64,000 nucleotides of DNA, taken from assembly GCA_046759465.1 (NCBI GenBank), contig JBHICH010000003.1:2504-66503 (forward strand), written 5' to 3'. Every line of letters starts with the position of its first letter. The stretch's first letter is position 1. The position numbers and the translations under genes are program-made. The stretch is from Nitrososphaerales archaeon. GTDB lineage: Archaea; Thermoproteota; Nitrososphaeria; Nitrososphaerales; UBA213. Under the pieces are notes generated by a model. The model was not told the DNA's origin, searched no databases, and saw only the letters and a list, made by a program, of their open reading frames with translations. Positions 4,097 through 12,234 of the stretch are shown here, one piece after another.

Positions 4097-4222
4097 TATT
4101 TAAGCTTTCCTTGCCACGTTTACAGTGTATTTTGCCGTAAACATCCAAGCGGCTGAAAAGTTAGCAAACTGCGTTAGAATAGATTAAACTATAATACATC
4201 ATAATTACATATTTGAAGGGAT

Positions 4223-5935
4223 TTGCCAGACATCATTGAGCATGATGTAATTATTGTAGGTTCTGGTCTTGCTGGTTTGCGTGCAGCCATTGAAGCCGCA
4301 AGAACGAGCAAAAAGTTGAGTATTGCTGTGATTTCCAAGGTTCAAGTAATGCGCTCGCATTCCGTATCTGCAGAAGGCGGCACGGCAGCTGTTCTTTATC
4401 CGGAGGAAGGAGACAGTTTTGAATCTCATATCTATGACACGATCAAGGGAAGCGACTTTCTAGCTGATCAGAACTGCGTTGAGCGTCTAGTCTACAGCAT
4501 GCCAAGTGAAATCTATAAGTTGGAGCATTGGGGTATGCCATGGTCAAGAAAGGAGGATGGAAGGGTCGCTCAGCGCTACTTTGGAGGATATAGCTTCCCA
4601 CGGGCAAGTTATGCGCAAGACAAAGTAGGATTTTACCAAATGCAAACTTTGTATGATACTGCATTGAAGTATGCCAACATAAACTTCTACAACGAATGGT
4701 TTGTAACTTCCTTGCTACACGAAGATCACCAGTTTAGAGGCTTGACTGCAATCGATATTGCAACTGGGAACTTTGGTGTTTTCAAAGCTAAAGCTTGCAT
4801 AATAGCAACTGGTGGTGCTGGTAGAATCTACTCGTTTGCAACATATGCATTGTCATCAACTCCAGACGGTCTTGACATGGCCTATAGAGCAGGTTTGGCA
4901 TTGAAGGACATGGAGTTTGTGCAGTTCCATCCAACAGGCATACTTCCATCTGGTATACTTGTAACCGAAGGAGCGAGGGGCGAAGGTGGATATTTGATAA
5001 ACAAAGATGGAGAACGGCTCATGAAGAAGTACGCGCCAAACAAACTAGAGTTGGCATCTAGAGACATTGTCTCAAGAGGAATGATTATTGAGATAGTTGA
5101 AGGGAGGGGTTTCAAAGATGGGGCAACTGGAATGAGCTACCTTCTGCTTGACTTGAGACATCTAGGGGCTCAAAAGATCAAGGAAAGACTTCTAGGTATC
5201 AGGGAGATCACAATGAAGTTTGCGGGTTTAGATCCAATTGACGAACCGATTCCAGTTAGACCAGTATGTCATTACATGATGGGAGGTGTGCATGTGAACA
5301 TAGACGGAGCGTCGGAGATGCCGGGACTCTGGGCAGCTGGTGAAGCAGCATGCGTAAGCGTTAATGGTGCCAACAGATTGGGTGCCAATTCAACTGCAGA
5401 GTGTTTGGTCTGGGGCAAGTTCACCGGGGAATTGGCGGCGAAGTATGCTTTGGAGCATGGCACACAAGACCTGCCCAATGATATGATCAGAAATGAAGAG
5501 AAAAGGATCTACGATGGAATCTTCCGTGGTGCTGGAGAAGCAAATCCTTACCAGATCACGAAAGAGTTAACAGACATGATGGATGAAAAGGCTCACGTAT
5601 ATAGAAATGAGCAGGGACTTGCAGAGGGGATAAAGAAAGTTAAGGAGTTACAGGCAAGAACATGGAAGCACGTTGATGACAAGGCGAAAGAATACAACAC
5701 GAACTTTACAAATGTGATGGAACTGGATTCGATGCTAAGAGCTTGCGAAGTTGTGCTTGTTAGCGCATACAACAGATTGGAATCTAGGGGCGCACATGCA
5801 AGGCTTGACTATCCACAACGTGATGATAAGAACTTCCTCAAGCACACAGTTGCTTACTATACAGGTGACGGACCCAAACTTGCCTACTATCCAGTAACTA
5901 TTACAAAATATAAACCCGAAGAACGACACTATTGA
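4223..5935 (+). CDS. sdhA: Succinate dehydrogenase/fumarate reductase flavoprotein subunit
   Basis: FAD fold VIIVGSGLAGLRAA, covalent-FAD His context RSHSVSAEGG, and the HPTG and RLGANS motifs. TTG start. Confidence 0.95.
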   Translation: MPDIIEHDVIIVGSGLAGLRAAIEAARTSKKLSIAVISKVQVMRSHSVSAEGGTAAVLYPEEGDSFESHIYDTIKGSDFLADQNCVERLVYSMPSEIYKLEHWGMPWSRKEDGRVAQRYFGGYSFPRASYAQDKVGFYQMQTLYDTALKYANINFYNEWFVTSLLHEDHQFRGLTAIDIATGNFGVFKAKACIIATGGAGRIYSFATYALSSTPDGLDMAYRAGLALKDMEFVQFHPTGILPSGILVTEGARGEGGYLINKDGERLMKKYAPNKLELASRDIVSRGMIIEIVEGRGFKDGATGMSYLLLDLRHLGAQKIKERLLGIREITMKFAGLDPIDEPIPVRPVCHYMMGGVHVNIDGASEMPGLWAAGEAACVSVNGANRLGANSTAECLVWGKFTGELAAKYALEHGTQDLPNDMIRNEEKRIYDGIFRGAGEANPYQITKELTDMMDEKAHVYRNEQGLAEGIKKVKELQARTWKHVDDKAKEYNTNFTNVMELDSMLRACEVVLVSAYNRLESRGAHARLDYPQRDDKNFLKHTVAYYTGDGPKLAYYPVTITKYKPEERHY

Positions 5936-7488: not shown

Positions 7489-7839
7489 TTACTTGTCGTA
7501 AAGTTGGAAGGTCTCCGAGCTAGCACCTGCTTGCGTACTGCCTTCGTTGACCTGCTTGTTTATTGCCTCAGCCATGAAGTGATTGCTAACATTAACTATA
7601 ACTTTCTTTACGCCTTCAATCTTTCCAATATTGTCATGTACGTCCTGCGCTATCTTGAAACCAAATACGGCTGGACAGAAGGGGCTTGTAAGGTGTAGAT
7701 CAACCTTGACATTTCCGTCTTGTATGTCAACGTTATCAACAAGGTTTAACTCCATTATAGATACTCCAATTTCAGGATCTACTATTGGTGATAGTGCATC
7801 GAATATCTTCTTCTTTACCTCCTGCAGATCCATGCTCAT
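7489..7839 (-). CDS. DUF59/MIP18-family Fe-S cluster assembly protein (SufT-like)
   Basis: IVDPEIGVSIMELNLV ... LTSPFCPA signature. The start is trimmed to Met57 (MSMDLQEV) of the 172-aa track ORF. Confidence 0.75.
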   Translation of the reverse strand: MSMDLQEVKKKIFDALSPIVDPEIGVSIMELNLVDNVDIQDGNVKVDLHLTSPFCPAVFGFKIAQDVHDNIGKIEGVKKVIVNVSNHFMAEAINKQVNEGSTQAGASSETFQLYDK

Positions 7840-8025
7840 TGCTGAAATTACACTAACGCTATATATAACCATATACAAGAAAATATCTAATACTGTTTCT
7901 CTCCCTTCCATTTTGAAAATGCAAGAATATCTTTTGTTTAAAACTAGGGGATACCTGTGAAGATGCATCCCTTGTGTGAGAGGCGAAAAATTGAGTATAT
8001 ATACCAATTATAATTTGCATTATGC

Positions 8026-9489
8026 ATGTATCGATCAAGGTTAAAGCGCAAGCTTGACAAAGATGCATTGAAATTCCTGTCTTCGGTTAGTGATGACCTT
8101 GCCCTATTGTATTACGACATTGTTGGCAGTGAAGCTCACTCACTAATGCTTTATGAGAATGGTTTGATAAAGCTGGCAGAACTGAAGAAGATAATCGCCG
8201 CATTGGAGAGCATTAAGAACGCAGACCTGAAGAAACTAGCATCTGATGAATATGAAGACATACATGAAGCTGTAGAAGCTTACGTCGTGGAAAGAGCAGG
8301 TATTAATGCTGGAGGCAAGATGCAGACTGCAAGATCAAGAAACGATCAGGTTTCACTTGACATAAGGATGAAGGTGAGAGATGACATCAATGGTACTTGT
8401 AAAGACTTGCTTACACTTATCGATATGCTGATCGCCAAGGCAGATCGCAACAAGGATGCAATAATGGTAATGTACACGCACCTACAGCATGCACAGATTG
8501 GAACTTTTTCACACTATCTGCTTTCATATGCAGACGCCTTGTTCCGTGACCTAGACAGGCTGTACATCTGCTACGGAAGGGTAAACCAATCCCCATTAGG
8601 AGCAGGCGCTATCGGAGGCACGTCGATCAAGATAGATCGTAAGAACACCGCATCACGGCTTGGCTTTGACAGCTTGGTGGAAAACTCGATCGATGCAACA
8701 ACTGCAAGAGACTTTATGCTCGAATTCTGCTTTGACCTCGCCATGATAATGCTTGATCTAAGCAGGATTGCAGAGGACTATGTGCTCTGGTCATCATCAG
8801 AGTTCAACTACATCGAGATTTCAGACGAGTTTACATCGAGTTCAAGCGTCATGCCCCAAAAGAAAAATCCTTGTCCTTTGGAACTTACGAGAGCCAAGAC
8901 TTCACTATTATTGGGCTTGCTCCTGAGCCTCATGGGAACGGTGAAGTCTTTACCTTCAGGATACAGTAGGGACCTACAAGACACGAAACATATGCTCTGG
9001 CAGGCAATCTCAATCGCTAAAGACGTGTTGAAATTGATGAATTCCATAGTAGGCACTGTAAAGGTAAACAAGAAAGTGATGCTGGAGGCTGCGCAAAACA
9101 GTTATGCAATTTCGCTTGACATTGCAGAAGAACTGGTAAAGAAGGGAGTTGCATTCAGGCAGGCACATAAGATTCTAGGTTCATTGGTAAAGGTTGCCTC
9201 TGACTCCAATAAAAGTTTGAAGGAGCTTAGCGATAAGGAGATAAAATCTGCTGTTGGGAAAGATTTTCCTGTAGATGAAATTGCTGGTATGATTAAGAGC
9301 GCGGATCTAAAACGTTGCTTGGAATCAAGGCCATCATTGGGCTCTCCAAATCCAAAAGAGCAGGAGAGAATGATCAACGATAGGAAGTTAAAGGCAAATG
9401 GCTATAGGATAGGTATAGAAAAGAGGACGAAGCAAATAAGCGACTCCTTTGGCAACCTGGAGAAGAGCGTTAGATCACTGCTAACTTAA
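8026..9489 (+). CDS. argH: Argininosuccinate lyase
   Basis: Fumarate-lyase signature SSVMPQKKNP, plus TARSRNDQV and the HLQHAQ motif. Confidence 0.93.
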   Translation: MYRSRLKRKLDKDALKFLSSVSDDLALLYYDIVGSEAHSLMLYENGLIKLAELKKIIAALESIKNADLKKLASDEYEDIHEAVEAYVVERAGINAGGKMQTARSRNDQVSLDIRMKVRDDINGTCKDLLTLIDMLIAKADRNKDAIMVMYTHLQHAQIGTFSHYLLSYADALFRDLDRLYICYGRVNQSPLGAGAIGGTSIKIDRKNTASRLGFDSLVENSIDATTARDFMLEFCFDLAMIMLDLSRIAEDYVLWSSSEFNYIEISDEFTSSSSVMPQKKNPCPLELTRAKTSLLLGLLLSLMGTVKSLPSGYSRDLQDTKHMLWQAISIAKDVLKLMNSIVGTVKVNKKVMLEAAQNSYAISLDIAEELVKKGVAFRQAHKILGSLVKVASDSNKSLKELSDKEIKSAVGKDFPVDEIAGMIKSADLKRCLESRPSLGSPNPKEQERMINDRKLKANGYRIGIEKRTKQISDSFGNLEKSVRSLLT

Positions 9490-9582: not shown

Positions 9583-10260
9583 TCAGATCTTTCTTAATGA
9601 TTCTAAATATCTTTTCTTTATGAACTTGATGAGTTTAATACTGTCTTCTTCCTTCAGGCTTTTTCTATGCGTTCTTAAATACTCCTTTAGTTGTTCAAGT
9701 TCCCGCTGTTTAACTCCAAGTGCTTTAGCGCGCTCAATAATCTCATCATAATTCCTGGACGGAAAATAAGTCTTCTTGGCTATTTTTATCAAAGTCTTTT
9801 TTATTTCATTTGCAAGGATTCCATCCTTTACCGCTGAATACAAGGTGTAGCGTATATCTATCAGTGCTTCGGACTGTAACTTGTAGTCCTGTTCAGAGAA
9901 TGTTACTGCTACCTCGTCATCTGAATCTATCTTGCCCGATTTGTAGAGTTTAAAGATCCTTCCAATGCCTAGCATCCCAAACTTTTCCAGTTCCACAGCA
10001 CGCAAAGCGCCAAGGCTTGCAGCTCCTGCCACAGTCATGTTTTGTTTTTTTATGAGAGTGTAGGTCTCTGTTGGGCTTGGCGGGTAGTCCTGCAAGAAGA
10101 CACTATCAATAAGTCCAATAAAATACACGCCATTTTCTTCATTTGCTATCTTTAGCAAGTCTCCTTTCCTAGCGGGTGATCTATAATCTGCAAGTGGAAA
10201 TATCTTTTTGGCACTTTCCACATCCAAACTTGGACCGAGAAATATTATTGGAAGCAACAT
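9583..10260 (-). CDS. tfuA: TfuA-like protein (YcaO partner for thioamide formation)
   Basis: The N-terminus IIFLGPSL and the overall ~225-aa TfuA pattern. It starts 12 nt after the ycaO stop on the same strand. Confidence 0.85.
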   Translation of the reverse strand: MLLPIIFLGPSLDVESAKKIFPLADYRSPARKGDLLKIANEENGVYFIGLIDSVFLQDYPPSPTETYTLIKKQNMTVAGAASLGALRAVELEKFGMLGIGRIFKLYKSGKIDSDDEVAVTFSEQDYKLQSEALIDIRYTLYSAVKDGILANEIKKTLIKIAKKTYFPSRNYDEIIERAKALGVKQRELEQLKEYLRTHRKSLKEEDSIKLIKFIKKRYLESLRKI

Positions 10261-10272
10261 CTCACCTTATTT

Positions 10273-11631
10273 TCACATGTGAAGCTTAGCGTGAGAAAAA
10301 TATCTCCTTCCGCGCTCTCCAATCGTTCCTTTGGCCACCTTGAAGGTCTCTAATCCAGGCACTATTGCCCTAACTACTGGAATATTTATTCCGCTATTTG
10401 TGAGATTCACTACTATTGCTCTCTTAAATCCTGCTTTCTTTAGACTTGTTAGTATTAGTCGTATATCATCAAGAATATCCTCATTCTCAAATGTCTTAAC
10501 TGCGTTGAAATCTTTCTTCTGTTTTGACCGCATGAACTGCCACGCTTTTGTTTCTGCAGTATTTCCCATTTTGTAATTCATTCTTCGCAGATCATCTCTC
10601 GCACCTTGTATGTTCGCAGCTCTAGTCTGTGATACTTCCGTTATTGCTCTGATCAGTGCTATCCTTGCATCTGGGTTTGTGCCGTGACCCTCCGCAAGGT
10701 ATCCATAATCATGCGTGACCCATTGTACACTCGTAGCAATGAATGTTGGCATCCCAATTTCGGTTGTTATATCTTTAATCAATAACGATATGTTTTCTTC
10801 TTGAAATCTACGTAATAGTGATCGAATGTACTGAAACTCCACTCCTGACACATCTACTTCTGGAAAGATATCTGGATCATCAACAAACTGATCTGATTGT
10901 AAAGGTTTTACATTTAACCCATGGTATCTTAAAGCATCGATCATGGTTCTAAGAACATGGAATGGTACAGCACTTGACCTTAGTTCAGCTAAACTAACTG
11001 CATCCCTCTCTATCACTTCGCAAAGAGCATGGAAGACGGCTTCTTCCAAAATATTTCCACATGCCAGGCCATTGGTATGATGATATTGAAATGGATTTAA
11101 GGTTCCATTTGTTGGCTCATAACGAAATAAGGCTAGAACAGCTGGCACTAATATTATATCTTTTGTAAATAGATCAATGCCTTTGAGAAAATCCATCTGC
11201 ATATGATCTTTATACGGAAATCTTAATGGCTCGACTACATCATCAGGATGTAATACGTATTCTCTTCCGTACTCCTTTGCCAATTCCTCATAACTGCCAG
11301 TTATGAACTGCCGAGGAGCTCCAGTTGGAAGAGCAGAGTACCTCTCAATACTCTCCATCAACGCACTTGCCCTTGCATGCGCCTTTGTTGGTCCTTTCCC
11401 ACTGTAGACCCAGATGTAATCTTCGGTTCCAGGAAGAACTGCGGAGTAATTTGGAATTCTTAATACATCCATGTAAGTGATATCCGCTAACCTAGTTACG
11501 CCAATGTTTTTTGCGATAAGTTCTGCTTTCTTAAGAGTCTCTTCTACAGGACAGACTCTTGACATGGCTTCATTAGCGCATTTTTTATGGCTCTGTAAAT
11601 CAAGCGAATTTGAGTCTGGCATTCTGTTCAC
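10273..11631 (-). CDS. ycaO: YcaO-domain ATP-dependent peptide backbone-activating enzyme
   Basis: Both YcaO ATP/Mg motifs are present (ALMESIERYS and CEVIERDAV). The C-terminal region is Pro-containing (PVVRAIVPGLE). Confidence 0.9.
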   Translation of the reverse strand: MNRMPDSNSLDLQSHKKCANEAMSRVCPVEETLKKAELIAKNIGVTRLADITYMDVLRIPNYSAVLPGTEDYIWVYSGKGPTKAHARASALMESIERYSALPTGAPRQFITGSYEELAKEYGREYVLHPDDVVEPLRFPYKDHMQMDFLKGIDLFTKDIILVPAVLALFRYEPTNGTLNPFQYHHTNGLACGNILEEAVFHALCEVIERDAVSLAELRSSAVPFHVLRTMIDALRYHGLNVKPLQSDQFVDDPDIFPEVDVSGVEFQYIRSLLRRFQEENISLLIKDITTEIGMPTFIATSVQWVTHDYGYLAEGHGTNPDARIALIRAITEVSQTRAANIQGARDDLRRMNYKMGNTAETKAWQFMRSKQKKDFNAVKTFENEDILDDIRLILTSLKKAGFKRAIVVNLTNSGINIPVVRAIVPGLETFKVAKGTIGERGRRYFSHAKLHM

Positions 11632-11666
11632 TTATCTTTTCTTTGGCTATTAATGTATTCATTGTC

Positions 11667-11680
11667 AAAAATTATATAAT
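11667..11680 (+). promoter_or_regulatory. TATA-like box (aaaaattatataat) in the ycaO/small-ORF divergent region
   Basis: An A/T box about 25 nt upstream of ATG 11701, which would fit a leaderless transcript of the small ORF. Confidence 0.3.
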
Positions 11681-11700
11681 TCGTTCTGTCTTTACATGGT

Positions 11701-11880
11701 ATGGAAGAGAAGGGGAAGGAAAAAGAGATCGAAATACTTAATGAAATCTTTGCGAAAGCTGCTAGTGATCGAGAATTCAGGAATATGTTAATTCATGAAA
11801 CTTCTTCTGTTCTGGAAAGATATCCAATATCCAGTGAAACTAAACAAATACTGAAAAAATGTATTTCCGATATGTCATGA
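11701..11880 (+). CDS. 59-aa Nif11/NHLP-leader-like small protein; candidate YcaO-TfuA substrate or partner
   Basis: My own translation is MEEKGKEKEIEILNEIFAKAASDREFRNMLIHETSSVLERYPISSETKQILKKCISDMS, one codon below the 60-aa ORF-track cutoff. The pattern L-x3-F-AKA-x2-D-x2-FR-x2-L ... VLERY-x-IS resembles Nif11/NHLP leader domains. Confidence 0.4.
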   Translation: MEEKGKEKEIEILNEIFAKAASDREFRNMLIHETSSVLERYPISSETKQILKKCISDMS

Positions 11881-11942
11881 ATGCCTATATGAACCCTAAA
11901 GGTTAGCGGGCCCGTCGGGCATTGATCCCGAGACCCCCGGAT

Positions 11943-11956
11943 CTCTTCAGCCAAGT
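11943..11956 (-). other. tRNA-Lys intron 2 (14 nt, ACTTGGCTGAAGAG, canonical position 37/38)
   Basis: An anticodon-intron helix CTTT/GAAG is flanked by the 3-nt bulges TA|A and AG|A next to the anticodon stem. Confidence 0.55.
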
Positions 11957-11963
11957 TAAAAGT

Positions 11964-11976
11964 TTCACCATCGCTT
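11964..11976 (-). other. tRNA-Lys intron 1 (13 nt, AAGCGATGGTGAA, position 30/31)
   Basis: A CACC/GGTG 4-bp helix has the outer helix AGAG/CTTT and an AAA bulge on one side and the unpaired GGA on the other. This is a relaxed bulge-helix-bulge motif. Confidence 0.55.
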
Positions 11977-12026
11977 CCGGTGCTCTACCTGACTGAGCTA
12001 CGGGCCCTTGAAAGTTGTCACGAATG

Positions 12027-12129: not shown

Positions 12130-12234
12130 GCCCTGGTAGTATAGCCTGGTCTAGTATGTGGGCCTGTCACGCCTGCGGCCCGGGTTCAAATCCCGGCCAA
12201 GGAATCACTTCGATGATTCCGCCGAAGGGCGCCA
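12130..12234 (+). tRNA. tRNA-Asp(GUC) with a 27-nt intron in the acceptor-stem 3' strand and a genomically encoded CCA
   Basis: The gene reads GCCCTGG-TA-GTAT-AGCCTGGTCTA-GTAT-G-TGGGC-CTGTCAC-GCCTG-CGGC-CCGGG-TTCAAAT-CCCGG-CCA[intron]GGGC-G-CCA. The anticodon GTC is at 12166-12168 and the discriminator is G. Confidence 0.85.
12200..12226 (+). other. tRNA-Asp intron (27 nt, position about 68/69)
   Basis: Removing it restores CCAGGGC, which is complementary to GCCCTGG. The intron contains a perfect 7-bp hairpin GGAATCA-CTTCGA-TGATTCC. The boundary is ambiguous by 1 nt because both junctions are A. Confidence 0.7.

Follow-up and report, generated by a model that had tools for sequence, protein, structure and literature searches.

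The question raised by this locus is which protein serves as substrate of a YcaO-TfuA pair in an archaeon whose lineage assignment places it in the Nitrososphaeria, a lineage that, to our knowledge, has no methyl-coenzyme M reductase (MCR). YcaO-TfuA homologues in ammonia-oxidizing archaea (AOA) have been noted since 2017, with the AOA YcaOs clustering with the methanogen clade (PMC5589413), and in 2021 they were counted among 'TfuA-related' clusters (PMC8120280). The occurrence of the pair in this lineage, to which the initial annotation of this DNA had drawn attention, is therefore already published, but the small candidate partner described here apparently is not. No substrate of AOA YcaO-TfuA was named in the literature searched, and searches for RiPP reports on Nitrososphaeria and for YcaO reports on Nitrososphaera gave nothing relevant. 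Only two thioamidated proteins are known, MCR and uL16 (Rice et al. 2026, PMC13063428).

Organization of the ycaO-tfuA locus

In the window, that is the whole stretch of 64,000 nucleotides that was analysed, the locus is arranged as follows.

9583..10260, minus strand: tfuA, 225 aa, TfuA partner of thioamide-forming YcaO enzymes
10273..11631, minus strand: ycaO, enzyme that activates backbone amides with ATP, TfuA-associated type
11632..11700, no strand: intergenic region between the divergent ycaO and small gene, holds the small-gene promoter
11701..11880, plus strand: small gene, 59 aa, predicted NHLP-clan mini-protein, candidate substrate or partner of YcaO-TfuA

Coordinates and strands of all three genes had been given correctly before, and the earlier translation of the small ORF was identical to ours. 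The ycaO stop codon is located at 10273-10275 and the ATG of tfuA at 10260, which leaves the 12-nt gap on the same strand that had been described. There are two options for the start of ycaO, GTG at 11631 (452 aa) and ATG at 11622 (449 aa), and homologue gene calls in loci L001 and L004 use the ATG form (449 aa). The ATG of the small ORF at 11701 is 69 nt away from GTG 11631, the distance reported initially, or 78 nt if ycaO starts with ATG 11622. With 59 aa, the product is indeed below the limit of the 60-aa ORF track that missed it, but the ORF is not unannotated, as had been stated, since NCBI lists it, in a MAG of the Nitrososphaerales, as the hypothetical protein ACE5J2_01005. An Rfam scan left the intron-containing tRNA uncalled.

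YcaO and TfuA are related to the McrA thioamidation pair of methanogens

YcaO matched Pfam PF02624 with 244.9 bits (cutoff 25.7) and TfuA matched PF07812 with 121.2 bits. The best NCBIfam model for YcaO was methan_mark_1, with 273.5 bits where 365 are required, and TfuA reached 215.4 bits with ThioGly_TfuA_rel, whose equivalog cutoff is 235.2. Unlike the McrA pair, both window enzymes missed the cutoffs of the equivalogs for McrA-glycine thioamidation (TIGR03266/NF033432), and they belong to a host lineage in which we know of no MCR. Nevertheless, the top NCBIfam models make the McrA thioglycine pair of methanogens the closest relative of both enzymes, and it has the same two-gene ycaO-tfuA arrangement in an archaeal host (PMC5589413). 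The ATP/Mg residues E93, E96, R97, E205, E208, R209 and D210 of YcaO were invariant in an alignment of 13 sequences, and the motifs MESIERY and CEVIERDA are intact, as had been read from the window alone. Among Nitrososphaeria relatives, YcaO identity across orders was 60-74%. Median pI values, compared with the electrostatic-complementarity heuristic of Rice et al. in mind, were ~7.3 for YcaO and ~5.3 for the small protein.

Purifying selection marks the small ORF as a genuine gene

The small-protein family comprises 467 clusters of 57-62 aa and is restricted to Nitrososphaeria; start position as well as length are conserved among the homologues. The dN/dS ratio, the measure proposed earlier for this ORF, was 0.03-0.43 overall; pairs of Nitrososphaeraceae gave 0.03-0.27, and the clade of the window gave 0.22-0.43. 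These values are well below 1, and together with the homologues of equal length and start position they identify the small ORF as a genuine gene that is kept by purifying selection. A TATA-like box is located at 11670-11679 (ttatataa at 11672-11679), ~25-28 nt upstream of the ATG. This box had been recognised in the single sequence at about 25 nt and was now found family-wide: across 34 loci, the consensus (a/g)gATTATATA lies at -33 to -26 with an A/T content of at least 91%, and relocated copies of the gene still carry the TATA promoter. The short distance between box and ATG points to a leaderless or near-leaderless mRNA.

The small protein is conserved as a whole, with a tail that is more variable than the preceding helical bundle (entropy of 1.73 vs 1.22 bits) and in which the amphipathic positions I50, L51, I55 and D57 are conserved. 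A conserved Gly, Cys, Ser or Thr as target residue was not found in the 25-member alignment of the family. The short Cys-containing tail pointed out initially is no family feature, since Cys54 is replaced by Ser or Thr in most relatives.

The small protein resembles a truncated NHLP leader domain

HMM scans with the 59-aa sequence alone gave weak matches (E 0.0013-0.16), and the NHLP matches became convincing once the scans were extended to each of the 25 members and to a profile of the family. TIGR03793 (NHLP leader) was matched by 25 of 25 members at E <= 1 (best 8.5e-6) and NF038399 (Os1348 family NHLP clan protein) likewise by all 25 (best 1.5e-7, 31.4 bits), but every match remained below the curated cutoffs, which are 50.9 bits for TIGR03793 (18.5 bits, E 0.0013, for the window protein; 22.3 for the best of seven scored individually) and 40 for NF038399. 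Furthermore, 14 of the 25 matched the TOMM_nitrile_2 model. The match covers positions 3-43 of the 77 of the NHLP model only. None of the Nif11 models of NCBIfam and Pfam was matched by any of the 25 members at E <= 1; the relation is therefore to NHLP and not to Nif11, and from the proposed likeness to Nif11/NHLP leaders, as from the leader-family HMM check proposed with it, the NHLP part was retained. The family profile matched nitrile hydratase alpha (1v29_A, 4.4e-6) and the NHLP leader 9cjx_A (6e-4), and the motif DPEFRxxLLxDP is common to the small-protein family, NHLP precursors and nitrile hydratase alpha. In the HMMER register to 9CJX, I12, I16, F26, L30, T/P34 and L38 of the small protein align to the core residues V12, I16, F26, C30, P34 and V38 of DprE2. 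An exhaustive representative search with a 3-sequence profile returned the small-protein family alone, canonical NHLP and Nif11 proteins being absent from the result. As nearest outgroup we found P0144, a protein of the NHLP clan (37.3 bits with NF038399) that adjoins a radical SAM enzyme, which follows the same precursor-beside-maturase logic as the small gene next to ycaO.

The AF2 model of the small protein is a helical bundle with a pLDDT of 90.4, in which helices are predicted at 2-22, 24-32 and 34-38. The predicted layout is a three-helix bundle (1-42), a loop (39-44) and a C-terminal amphipathic helix (45-58). The tail is predicted with high confidence to be a packed helix and not a disordered hypervariable core. 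No beta-strand follows the bundle in the model, the protein ending at residue 59, and a search for a GG/GA cleavage motif revealed that none of the 25 sequences in the alignment has a GG. Judged by sequence and predicted fold, the small protein is a truncated NHLP-clan domain, homologous to NHLP.

Linkage of the small gene to ycaO and tfuA

Of 80 species-level ycaO loci, 33 have the small ORF directly beside ycaO in divergent orientation, 52-96 bp away. These linked loci span Nitrososphaeraceae, Nitrosopolaris, Nitrosomirales and Nitrosocaldus. In metagenomes, linkage was found in 37 of 67 informative loci. Even P0141, the most divergent member of the small-protein family, is still linked to ycaO. 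Around the small ORF, the conserved neighbours are ycaO (34/34) and tfuA (33/34), followed by the next family with 14/34; ycaO, tfuA and the small gene are thus a conserved three-gene module. However, about half of the lineages have the small gene and ycaO apart (47/80 genome loci, 30/67 metagenome loci), so that the expectation that a homologous ORF would sit beside ycaO-tfuA in other genomes was borne out in part. Both genes are kept but unlinked in one MAG, DATEUD01 (loci L031 and L174), the one genome from which co-occurrence of the unlinked genes was established. No protease or peptidase-containing ABC exporter was found near the module, where the listed neighbours are housekeeping genes only, none of them conserved.

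Comparison with known YcaO systems

NHLP leaders are known YcaO substrates that dock as folded domains (PMC12455567). They do so via protein-protein contacts, and the same would be expected of the folded domain of the small protein. In NHLP precursors (MprE/MprC; DprE2, PDB 9CJX; MprE7, PDB 8TB1), the three-helix bundle and the hydrophobic core positions are the same as predicted for the small protein, and the gene lies beside that of a YcaO enzyme as well. On the other hand, NHLP leaders have at least 80 aa plus a core, whereas the small protein has ~58 aa in total, and their two-strand beta-sheet, disordered linker, GG site and hypervariable Cys/Ser/Thr-rich core are absent from it. An L(X)4L/RRE pairing was not seen for the small protein, and the YcaOs of NHLP systems are azoline-forming cyclodehydratases, whereas the window YcaO is of the TfuA-associated thioamide type. 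Moreover, the small protein is archaeal and scores below the curated cutoffs.

In the thioamitide and thiovarsolin systems, a YcaO-TfuA pair adjoins a small precursor-like gene, as in the window. Nif11-like precursors have been predicted for bacterial TfuA clusters, a bioinformatic precedent for a leader of the Nif11/NHLP superfamily (PMC8120280), but the small-protein family is unmatched by Nif11 models. Bacterial thioamide RiPP precursors come with GG motifs, variable cores, tailoring enzymes and transporters, all of which the archaeal module lacks.

The McrA pair acts on a large leaderless protein (PMC5589413), whereas the window pair has a dedicated small protein next door which, compared with McrA thioglycine, has no conserved Gly. 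EcYcaO recognises folded uL16 by its tertiary structure and is strongly conserved (PMC13063428), as is the window YcaO. In contrast to the latter, which has a TfuA and a pI of ~7.3, EcYcaO has no TfuA, a pI of 4.4 and a TPR domain, and its substrate uL16 is encoded elsewhere, whereas the candidate in the window is a dedicated mini-protein.

Proposed function and alternative explanations

In the most likely reading, to which we give slightly less than even weight, YcaO-TfuA would have the small protein as its encoded substrate and turn it into a thioamidated mini-protein that is not cleaved. The small gene would be driven by its own strong TATA promoter and translated from a near-leaderless mRNA. 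The folded bundle would then dock to YcaO through protein-protein contacts, in the way known for structured NHLP leaders and the YcaO MprC, and YcaO would use ATP to O-phosphorylate a backbone amide C-terminal to the bundle, in loop 39-44 or tail 45-59. TfuA would supply sulfide by hydrolysis of a thiocarboxylated ThiS-like carrier, and departure of the phosphate would leave a thioamide (+15.977 Da). Of this scheme, four points are inferred: docking on YcaO, thioamidation of the small protein, where it is modified, and that it stays uncleaved. As the module comes with neither a protease nor an exporter, a cleavage motif is missing too and the tail is conserved, the thioamidated product probably remains uncleaved inside the cell and is not a secreted peptide. 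Missing a cleavage motif, a hypervariable core and an exporter, the small protein is not a canonical RiPP precursor; of that earlier reading there remains a selected, NHLP-related gene beside ycaO.

The substrate model is favoured as most likely by the reality of the gene, its NHLP homology, the role of NHLP leaders as YcaO substrates, the linkage, the precursor-beside-maturase arrangement of P0144 and a tail that is variable relative to the bundle. Against it stand the conservation of the whole protein, the absence of cleavage site, target residue, protease and exporter, the sub-cutoff NHLP scores, the unlinked half of the lineages, enzymes that are nearest to a pair with a large leaderless substrate, and the strong conservation of YcaO. 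The main rival, which we consider unlikely, is that YcaO-TfuA thioamidates another folded protein, housekeeping or lineage-specific, as in the case of McrA and uL16, and that the mini-protein is an unmodified YcaO-binding adaptor, an activator ('leader in trans') or a regulator. This would suit the McrA-type affinity of the enzymes and the position of AOA YcaOs in the methanogen clade (PMC5589413). It would also agree with the ability of YcaOs to read the tertiary structure of whole proteins and with the association of slowly diverging YcaOs with static housekeeping substrates (PMC13063428), to which the 60-74% identity of this YcaO corresponds. A small protein that is conserved end to end and predicted to be fully folded fits this rival too, as do the role of the NHLP/nitrile hydratase alpha N-terminal module as a protein-protein interaction element and the capacity of the small gene to leave the ycaO neighbourhood without being lost. 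However, the neighbourhood yields no alternative substrate, nothing else being conserved there, and with a median pI of 7.3 YcaO is near neutral, whereas the uL16-type enzyme is acidic (pI 4.4). In addition, every characterised NHLP case has the modified segment attached to the domain, and no precedent for a free-standing NHLP domain acting in trans was found in the literature searched.

Less probable still, and in our view improbable, is that adjacency reflects inherited gene order without a functional link and that the mini-protein does something unrelated, for instance as a small structural or regulatory helical protein. The genes are apart in about half of the lineages, the self-contained promoter moves along with the small gene, and Haft et al. 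reportedly described in 2010 stand-alone members of the Nif11/nitrile-hydratase-like superfamily that have no RiPP function. Yet the small gene and ycaO are kept together across several orders, as no other neighbour is, the divergent P0141 included, and the domain, here next to a YcaO, is characterised as presenting peptides to YcaO, LanM or radical SAM enzymes, so that domain type and position are two independent indications that agree. A mildly acidic protein (median pI 5.3) is, moreover, untypical of a DNA-binding regulator, and such a role was considered unlikely for this reason. The idea that the 59-codon ORF is an accidental reading frame without product has practically no chance of being true: the ORF is small enough to fall under common ORF thresholds and matches no family above threshold, but the conservation and selection data refute this view, with 467 homologous clusters of fixed length and start position, a dN/dS down to 0.03, a conserved promoter, a confident AF2 model and retention of the gene after relocation. 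Two further ideas on the small protein were rejected, a ThiS-like sulfur carrier because there is no C-terminal GG, and a likeness of the C-terminal ..IDLTQ to the McrA thioglycine region because the D/L positions are not conserved beyond Nitrososphaeraceae.

Implications

If the substrate model holds, AOA may, and we put this forward with a little more reserve than the model itself, add a third kind of thioamidated protein to the two already known, McrA and uL16: a dedicated uncleaved mini-protein whose minimal NHLP bundle would serve as a built-in docking domain for YcaO-TfuA, intermediate between a RiPP precursor and a protein substrate. Thioamides are strong ligands of soft metals and ammonia-oxidizing archaea rely heavily on copper. 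A role of the product in metal handling is therefore conceivable, although this is pure speculation.

The small protein is the first concrete candidate substrate in archaea without the only known archaeal target, and it offers a specific, cloneable candidate of ~58 aa with a recognisable enzyme-docking fold that is co-inherited with the enzymes in soil nitrifiers of global importance. With it, the known range of the NHLP fold extends to Archaea, where it is reduced to a version without beta-hairpin, cleavage site and core. This is relevant to the question of how protein domains gave rise to RiPP leaders and to the indistinct boundary between RiPP maturation and post-translational modification of proteins.

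Results

The ycaO-tfuA pair and the divergent small gene

All three genes described in the initial annotation, tfuA, ycaO and a small ORF, were found in the window, and the translation of the small ORF matched the quoted sequence exactly.

9583..10260, minus strand: tfuA (PF07812, 121.2 bits)
10273..11631, minus strand: ycaO (PF02624, 244.9 bits)
11701..11880, plus strand: small ORF of 59 codons (translation, family homologues)
11906..12007, minus strand: probable intron-containing tRNA (ARAGORN with introns enabled; 75 nt mature, 27-nt intron in the anticodon loop)
12130..12204, plus strand: tRNA-Asp, after the intron-containing tRNA

The identity of YcaO and TfuA is unambiguous by Pfam. The top NCBIfam models for both were those of the McrA-glycine thioamidation pair, with scores under the cutoffs (YcaO 273.5 vs the equivalog cutoff of 365 bits, TfuA 215.4 vs 235.2 bits). 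The ATP/Mg motif residues of YcaO, described before as intact, are invariant in an alignment of 13 sequences, and 12 nt separate the tfuA start from the ycaO stop. For ycaO itself the start is ambiguous (11622..11631): GTG at 11631 is the earliest in-frame start and gives the reported gap of 69 nt to the small ORF, whereas the 449-aa gene calls of close homologues correspond to ATG at 11622 and a gap of 78 nt. On the tfuA side, the window (7489..9489) has genes for FeS assembly and argininosuccinate lyase in common with a retrieved locus of a close relative (L001, 1..3357 in its own coordinates), but the latter has an additional Fic and PaREP1 gene, which points to recent, local flux of genes around a ycaO module that is otherwise fixed. 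The 3' end of the intron-containing tRNA, which was missed by default ARAGORN and by Rfam at gathering threshold, lies 26 nt from the small-ORF stop; ARAGORN with introns enabled called it Ser(cga), an identity that is doubtful because a long variable arm is absent.

The small ORF had been taken as unannotated, but NCBI has it as a called gene of a Nitrososphaerales MAG, with the product labelled hypothetical protein and without name or function. A YcaO-profile scan of species-representative genomes yielded 80 loci, all from Nitrososphaeria. When all six-frame ORFs were searched with an iterated profile, 33 of the loci proved to encode a homologue of the small protein, always on the strand opposite ycaO and usually at a distance of 52–96 bp. 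Among these were Nitrososphaeraceae, Ca. Nitrosopolaris, Ca. Nitrosomirales (487 bp from ycaO) and Ca. Nitrosocaldus (1264 bp). The protein is 57–62 aa long throughout and its start codon, TTG in Nitrososphaeraceae and ATG in the window's clade, is fixed in position. Purifying selection was evident from dN/dS values (Nei-Gojobori) of 0.03–0.27 for unsaturated Nitrososphaeraceae pairs and 0.22–0.43 for the window against its two close relatives. A spurious small ORF is excluded. A word-indexed profile search gave 467 clusters of the family, all unnamed and with named sources all in Nitrososphaeria. HMMER, run exhaustively over 1.84 billion representatives, gave only 27; the sequences retrieved for 25 of those 27 included the mini-protein family, its divergent member P0141 and an outgroup relative, P0144.

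The proposed leaderless transcription extends to the family: nearly all loci have a TATA box (consensus around aggATTATATAg) ahead of the start codon, the region from −33 to −26 is at least 91% A/T, and this position indicates a leaderless or near-leaderless mRNA. The Nitrososphaeraceae gene always has a TTG start with the TATA box centred ~28 nt upstream (L012, L013, L021 and others, as well as the relocated copies L089 and L174), which implies that its mRNA would be leaderless and begin with UUG, an unusual combination.

Linkage to ycaO-tfuA and relocated copies

All ORFs of at least 70 aa were clustered across the 34 loci holding the small gene. All 34 had YcaO and 33 had TfuA, but no other genuine neighbour family exceeded 14 loci, so that the small gene, ycaO and tfuA are the only unit conserved across orders; the functional linkage suggested initially holds. 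In the reverse direction, metagenomes were scanned using the profile of the small protein. Of 67 informative loci, the small gene had ycaO as its directly adjacent divergent gene in 37 and no ycaO in its vicinity in 30. Even the gene for P0141, the most divergent member, is a divergent neighbour of ycaO (65-bp gap).

The unlinked copies look like lineage-specific relocation. They group in sequence sub-clades of their own, with unchanged length and C-terminus, and keep the TATA cassette and TTG start. The median GC of their contigs is 0.49, which agrees with the 0.48 of ycaO loci without the small-gene neighbour and is higher than the 0.38–0.39 of the linked sets. A single ancestral rearrangement in which both genes were kept fits this pattern better than loss; one MAG, DATEUD01, does have both, with ycaO lacking its neighbour at L031 and the small gene elsewhere, at L174. 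The cases examined (L089 1..6200, L174, L176) share one syntenic place: Amt ammonium transporter, a 61-aa ORF, Na+/H+ exchanger (−), small gene (+) and OGG glycosylase (−). The 61-aa ORF (MSARGKFTTGQTWGALKKAWKGYK...) is another conserved unannotated small protein.

In 40 of the 47 ycaO loci without the small gene, the slot upstream of ycaO is filled by a ~130-aa gene without Pfam hit, which was never found where the small gene is present. Its product (RELDWYLRDHLFRQS...CAKCFYINYL) is possibly a zinc ribbon. Often a DUF6659 gene comes next; L019 (4575..4958, +, and 4179..4556, −) is an example of this region. DUF6659 is also found just downstream of tfuA in L085 and L087.

The mini-protein is a minimal NHLP-clan bundle

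The mini-protein had been likened to Nif11 and NHLP (nitrile hydratase-like leader peptide) leaders. Only the latter likeness stood: all 25 diverse members matched TIGR03793 (best 8.5e-6) and NF038399 (best 1.5e-7, 31.4 bits), 14 matched the nitrile-hydratase-type TOMM precursor model and 10–16 nitrile hydratase alpha, and no Nif11 model was among the matches of the 25. All NHLP-clan scores were under the curated cutoffs. The window protein alone gave weak matches to the NHLP leader (E 0.0013), Os1348 NHLP-clan (0.056), nitrile hydratase alpha (0.15) and Frankia_peptide (0.16). Against the PDB, the family profile retrieved nitrile hydratase alpha chains (1v29_A, 4.4e-6) and the NHLP leader of solved structure, DprE2 (9cjx_A, 6e-4; the length of its 107-aa chain corresponds to a 21-residue tag and the 86-residue leader). 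The motif ..RA..DPEFR..LL.DP..VL..Y, plain in the alignments, is common to the family and its nitrile hydratase alpha/NHLP matches.

AlphaFold2 (68-sequence alignment; pLDDT 90.4, pTM 0.72) confidently predicted helices at 2–22, 24–32, 34–38 and 45–58. By NMR, DprE2 is a three-helix bundle with V12, I16, F26, C30, P34 and V38 as hydrophobic nucleus; after the bundle come a beta-hairpin and then a disordered tail (PMC12537861). By HMMER offsets, I12, I16, F26, L30, T34 and L38 of the window protein align exactly to these positions; position 34 is Pro in 72% of members. This register and the family-level matches identify the mini-protein as a minimal NHLP-clan bundle. Unlike canonical NHLP precursors, it has neither beta-hairpin nor disordered linker, and neither a GG site nor a Cys/Ser/Thr-rich hypervariable core. 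Variability is higher in the last 11 residues (1.73 bits) than in the bundle (1.22 bits), but an amphipathic pattern is kept there. A Cys-containing tail, as first described, is not general, since Cys54 is confined to few clades.

The nearest outgroup, P0144 (73 aa), has a longer, Cys-containing C-terminus and scored 37.3 bits with the Os1348 NHLP-clan model (cutoff 40). Its gene (L181 956..1177, +; also in L182) overlaps the end of a radical SAM gene (L181 1..1017, +; PF04055, 72.7 bits), an order that matches the usual arrangement of precursor next to maturase. The two look like an uncharacterised NHLP-clan/radical-SAM RiPP pair. The source contigs are low in GC (0.37).

Discussion

YcaO enzymes activate backbone amides with ATP, and together with TfuA the outcome is a thioamide. 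In organisms not living in sulfide, TfuA-type systems obtain sulfide from a thiocarboxylated ThiS-like carrier (PMC13063428). NHLP leaders are folded and contact YcaO cyclodehydratases via protein-protein interactions (PMC12455567). From this chemistry and these contacts we tentatively propose, as the likeliest of the readings considered, that the bundle of the mini-protein may dock on YcaO, and an amide beyond the bundle on its C-terminal side would be converted to a thioamide. The tail is conserved and the module comes without functions for cleavage or export, so the product would probably be the intact modified mini-protein.

As the main alternative, YcaO-TfuA could modify another folded protein, as in MCR and uL16, the only two known protein cases, with the mini-protein as adaptor. 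The enzymes resemble the McrA type, YcaO diverges slowly and the mini-protein is conserved end to end, all of which would suit such a role. However, no other conserved gene is nearby, the YcaO is not acidic (pI ~7.3 vs 4.4 for EcYcaO) and the characterised NHLP domains all carry the segment that is modified; we consider an external substrate less likely than the mini-protein itself. That the small gene lies beside ycaO by pure historical synteny is improbable, since an enzyme-docking RiPP domain is found beside a RiPP-type enzyme across several orders.

YcaO-TfuA was already known in ammonia oxidizers (PMC5589413; PMC8120280), and Nif11-type precursors with GG motifs were predicted in bacterial TfuA clusters (PMC8120280). 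In the literature searched outside subscription journals, no paper was found that names this family of archaeal mini-proteins or a substrate of the enzymes in ammonia-oxidizing archaea. The mini-protein is a candidate NHLP-type partner of YcaO, yet minimal, archaeal, TfuA-coupled and apparently uncleaved. As a putative YcaO-TfuA substrate, it makes a question that dates from 2017 accessible to one simple and specific experiment.
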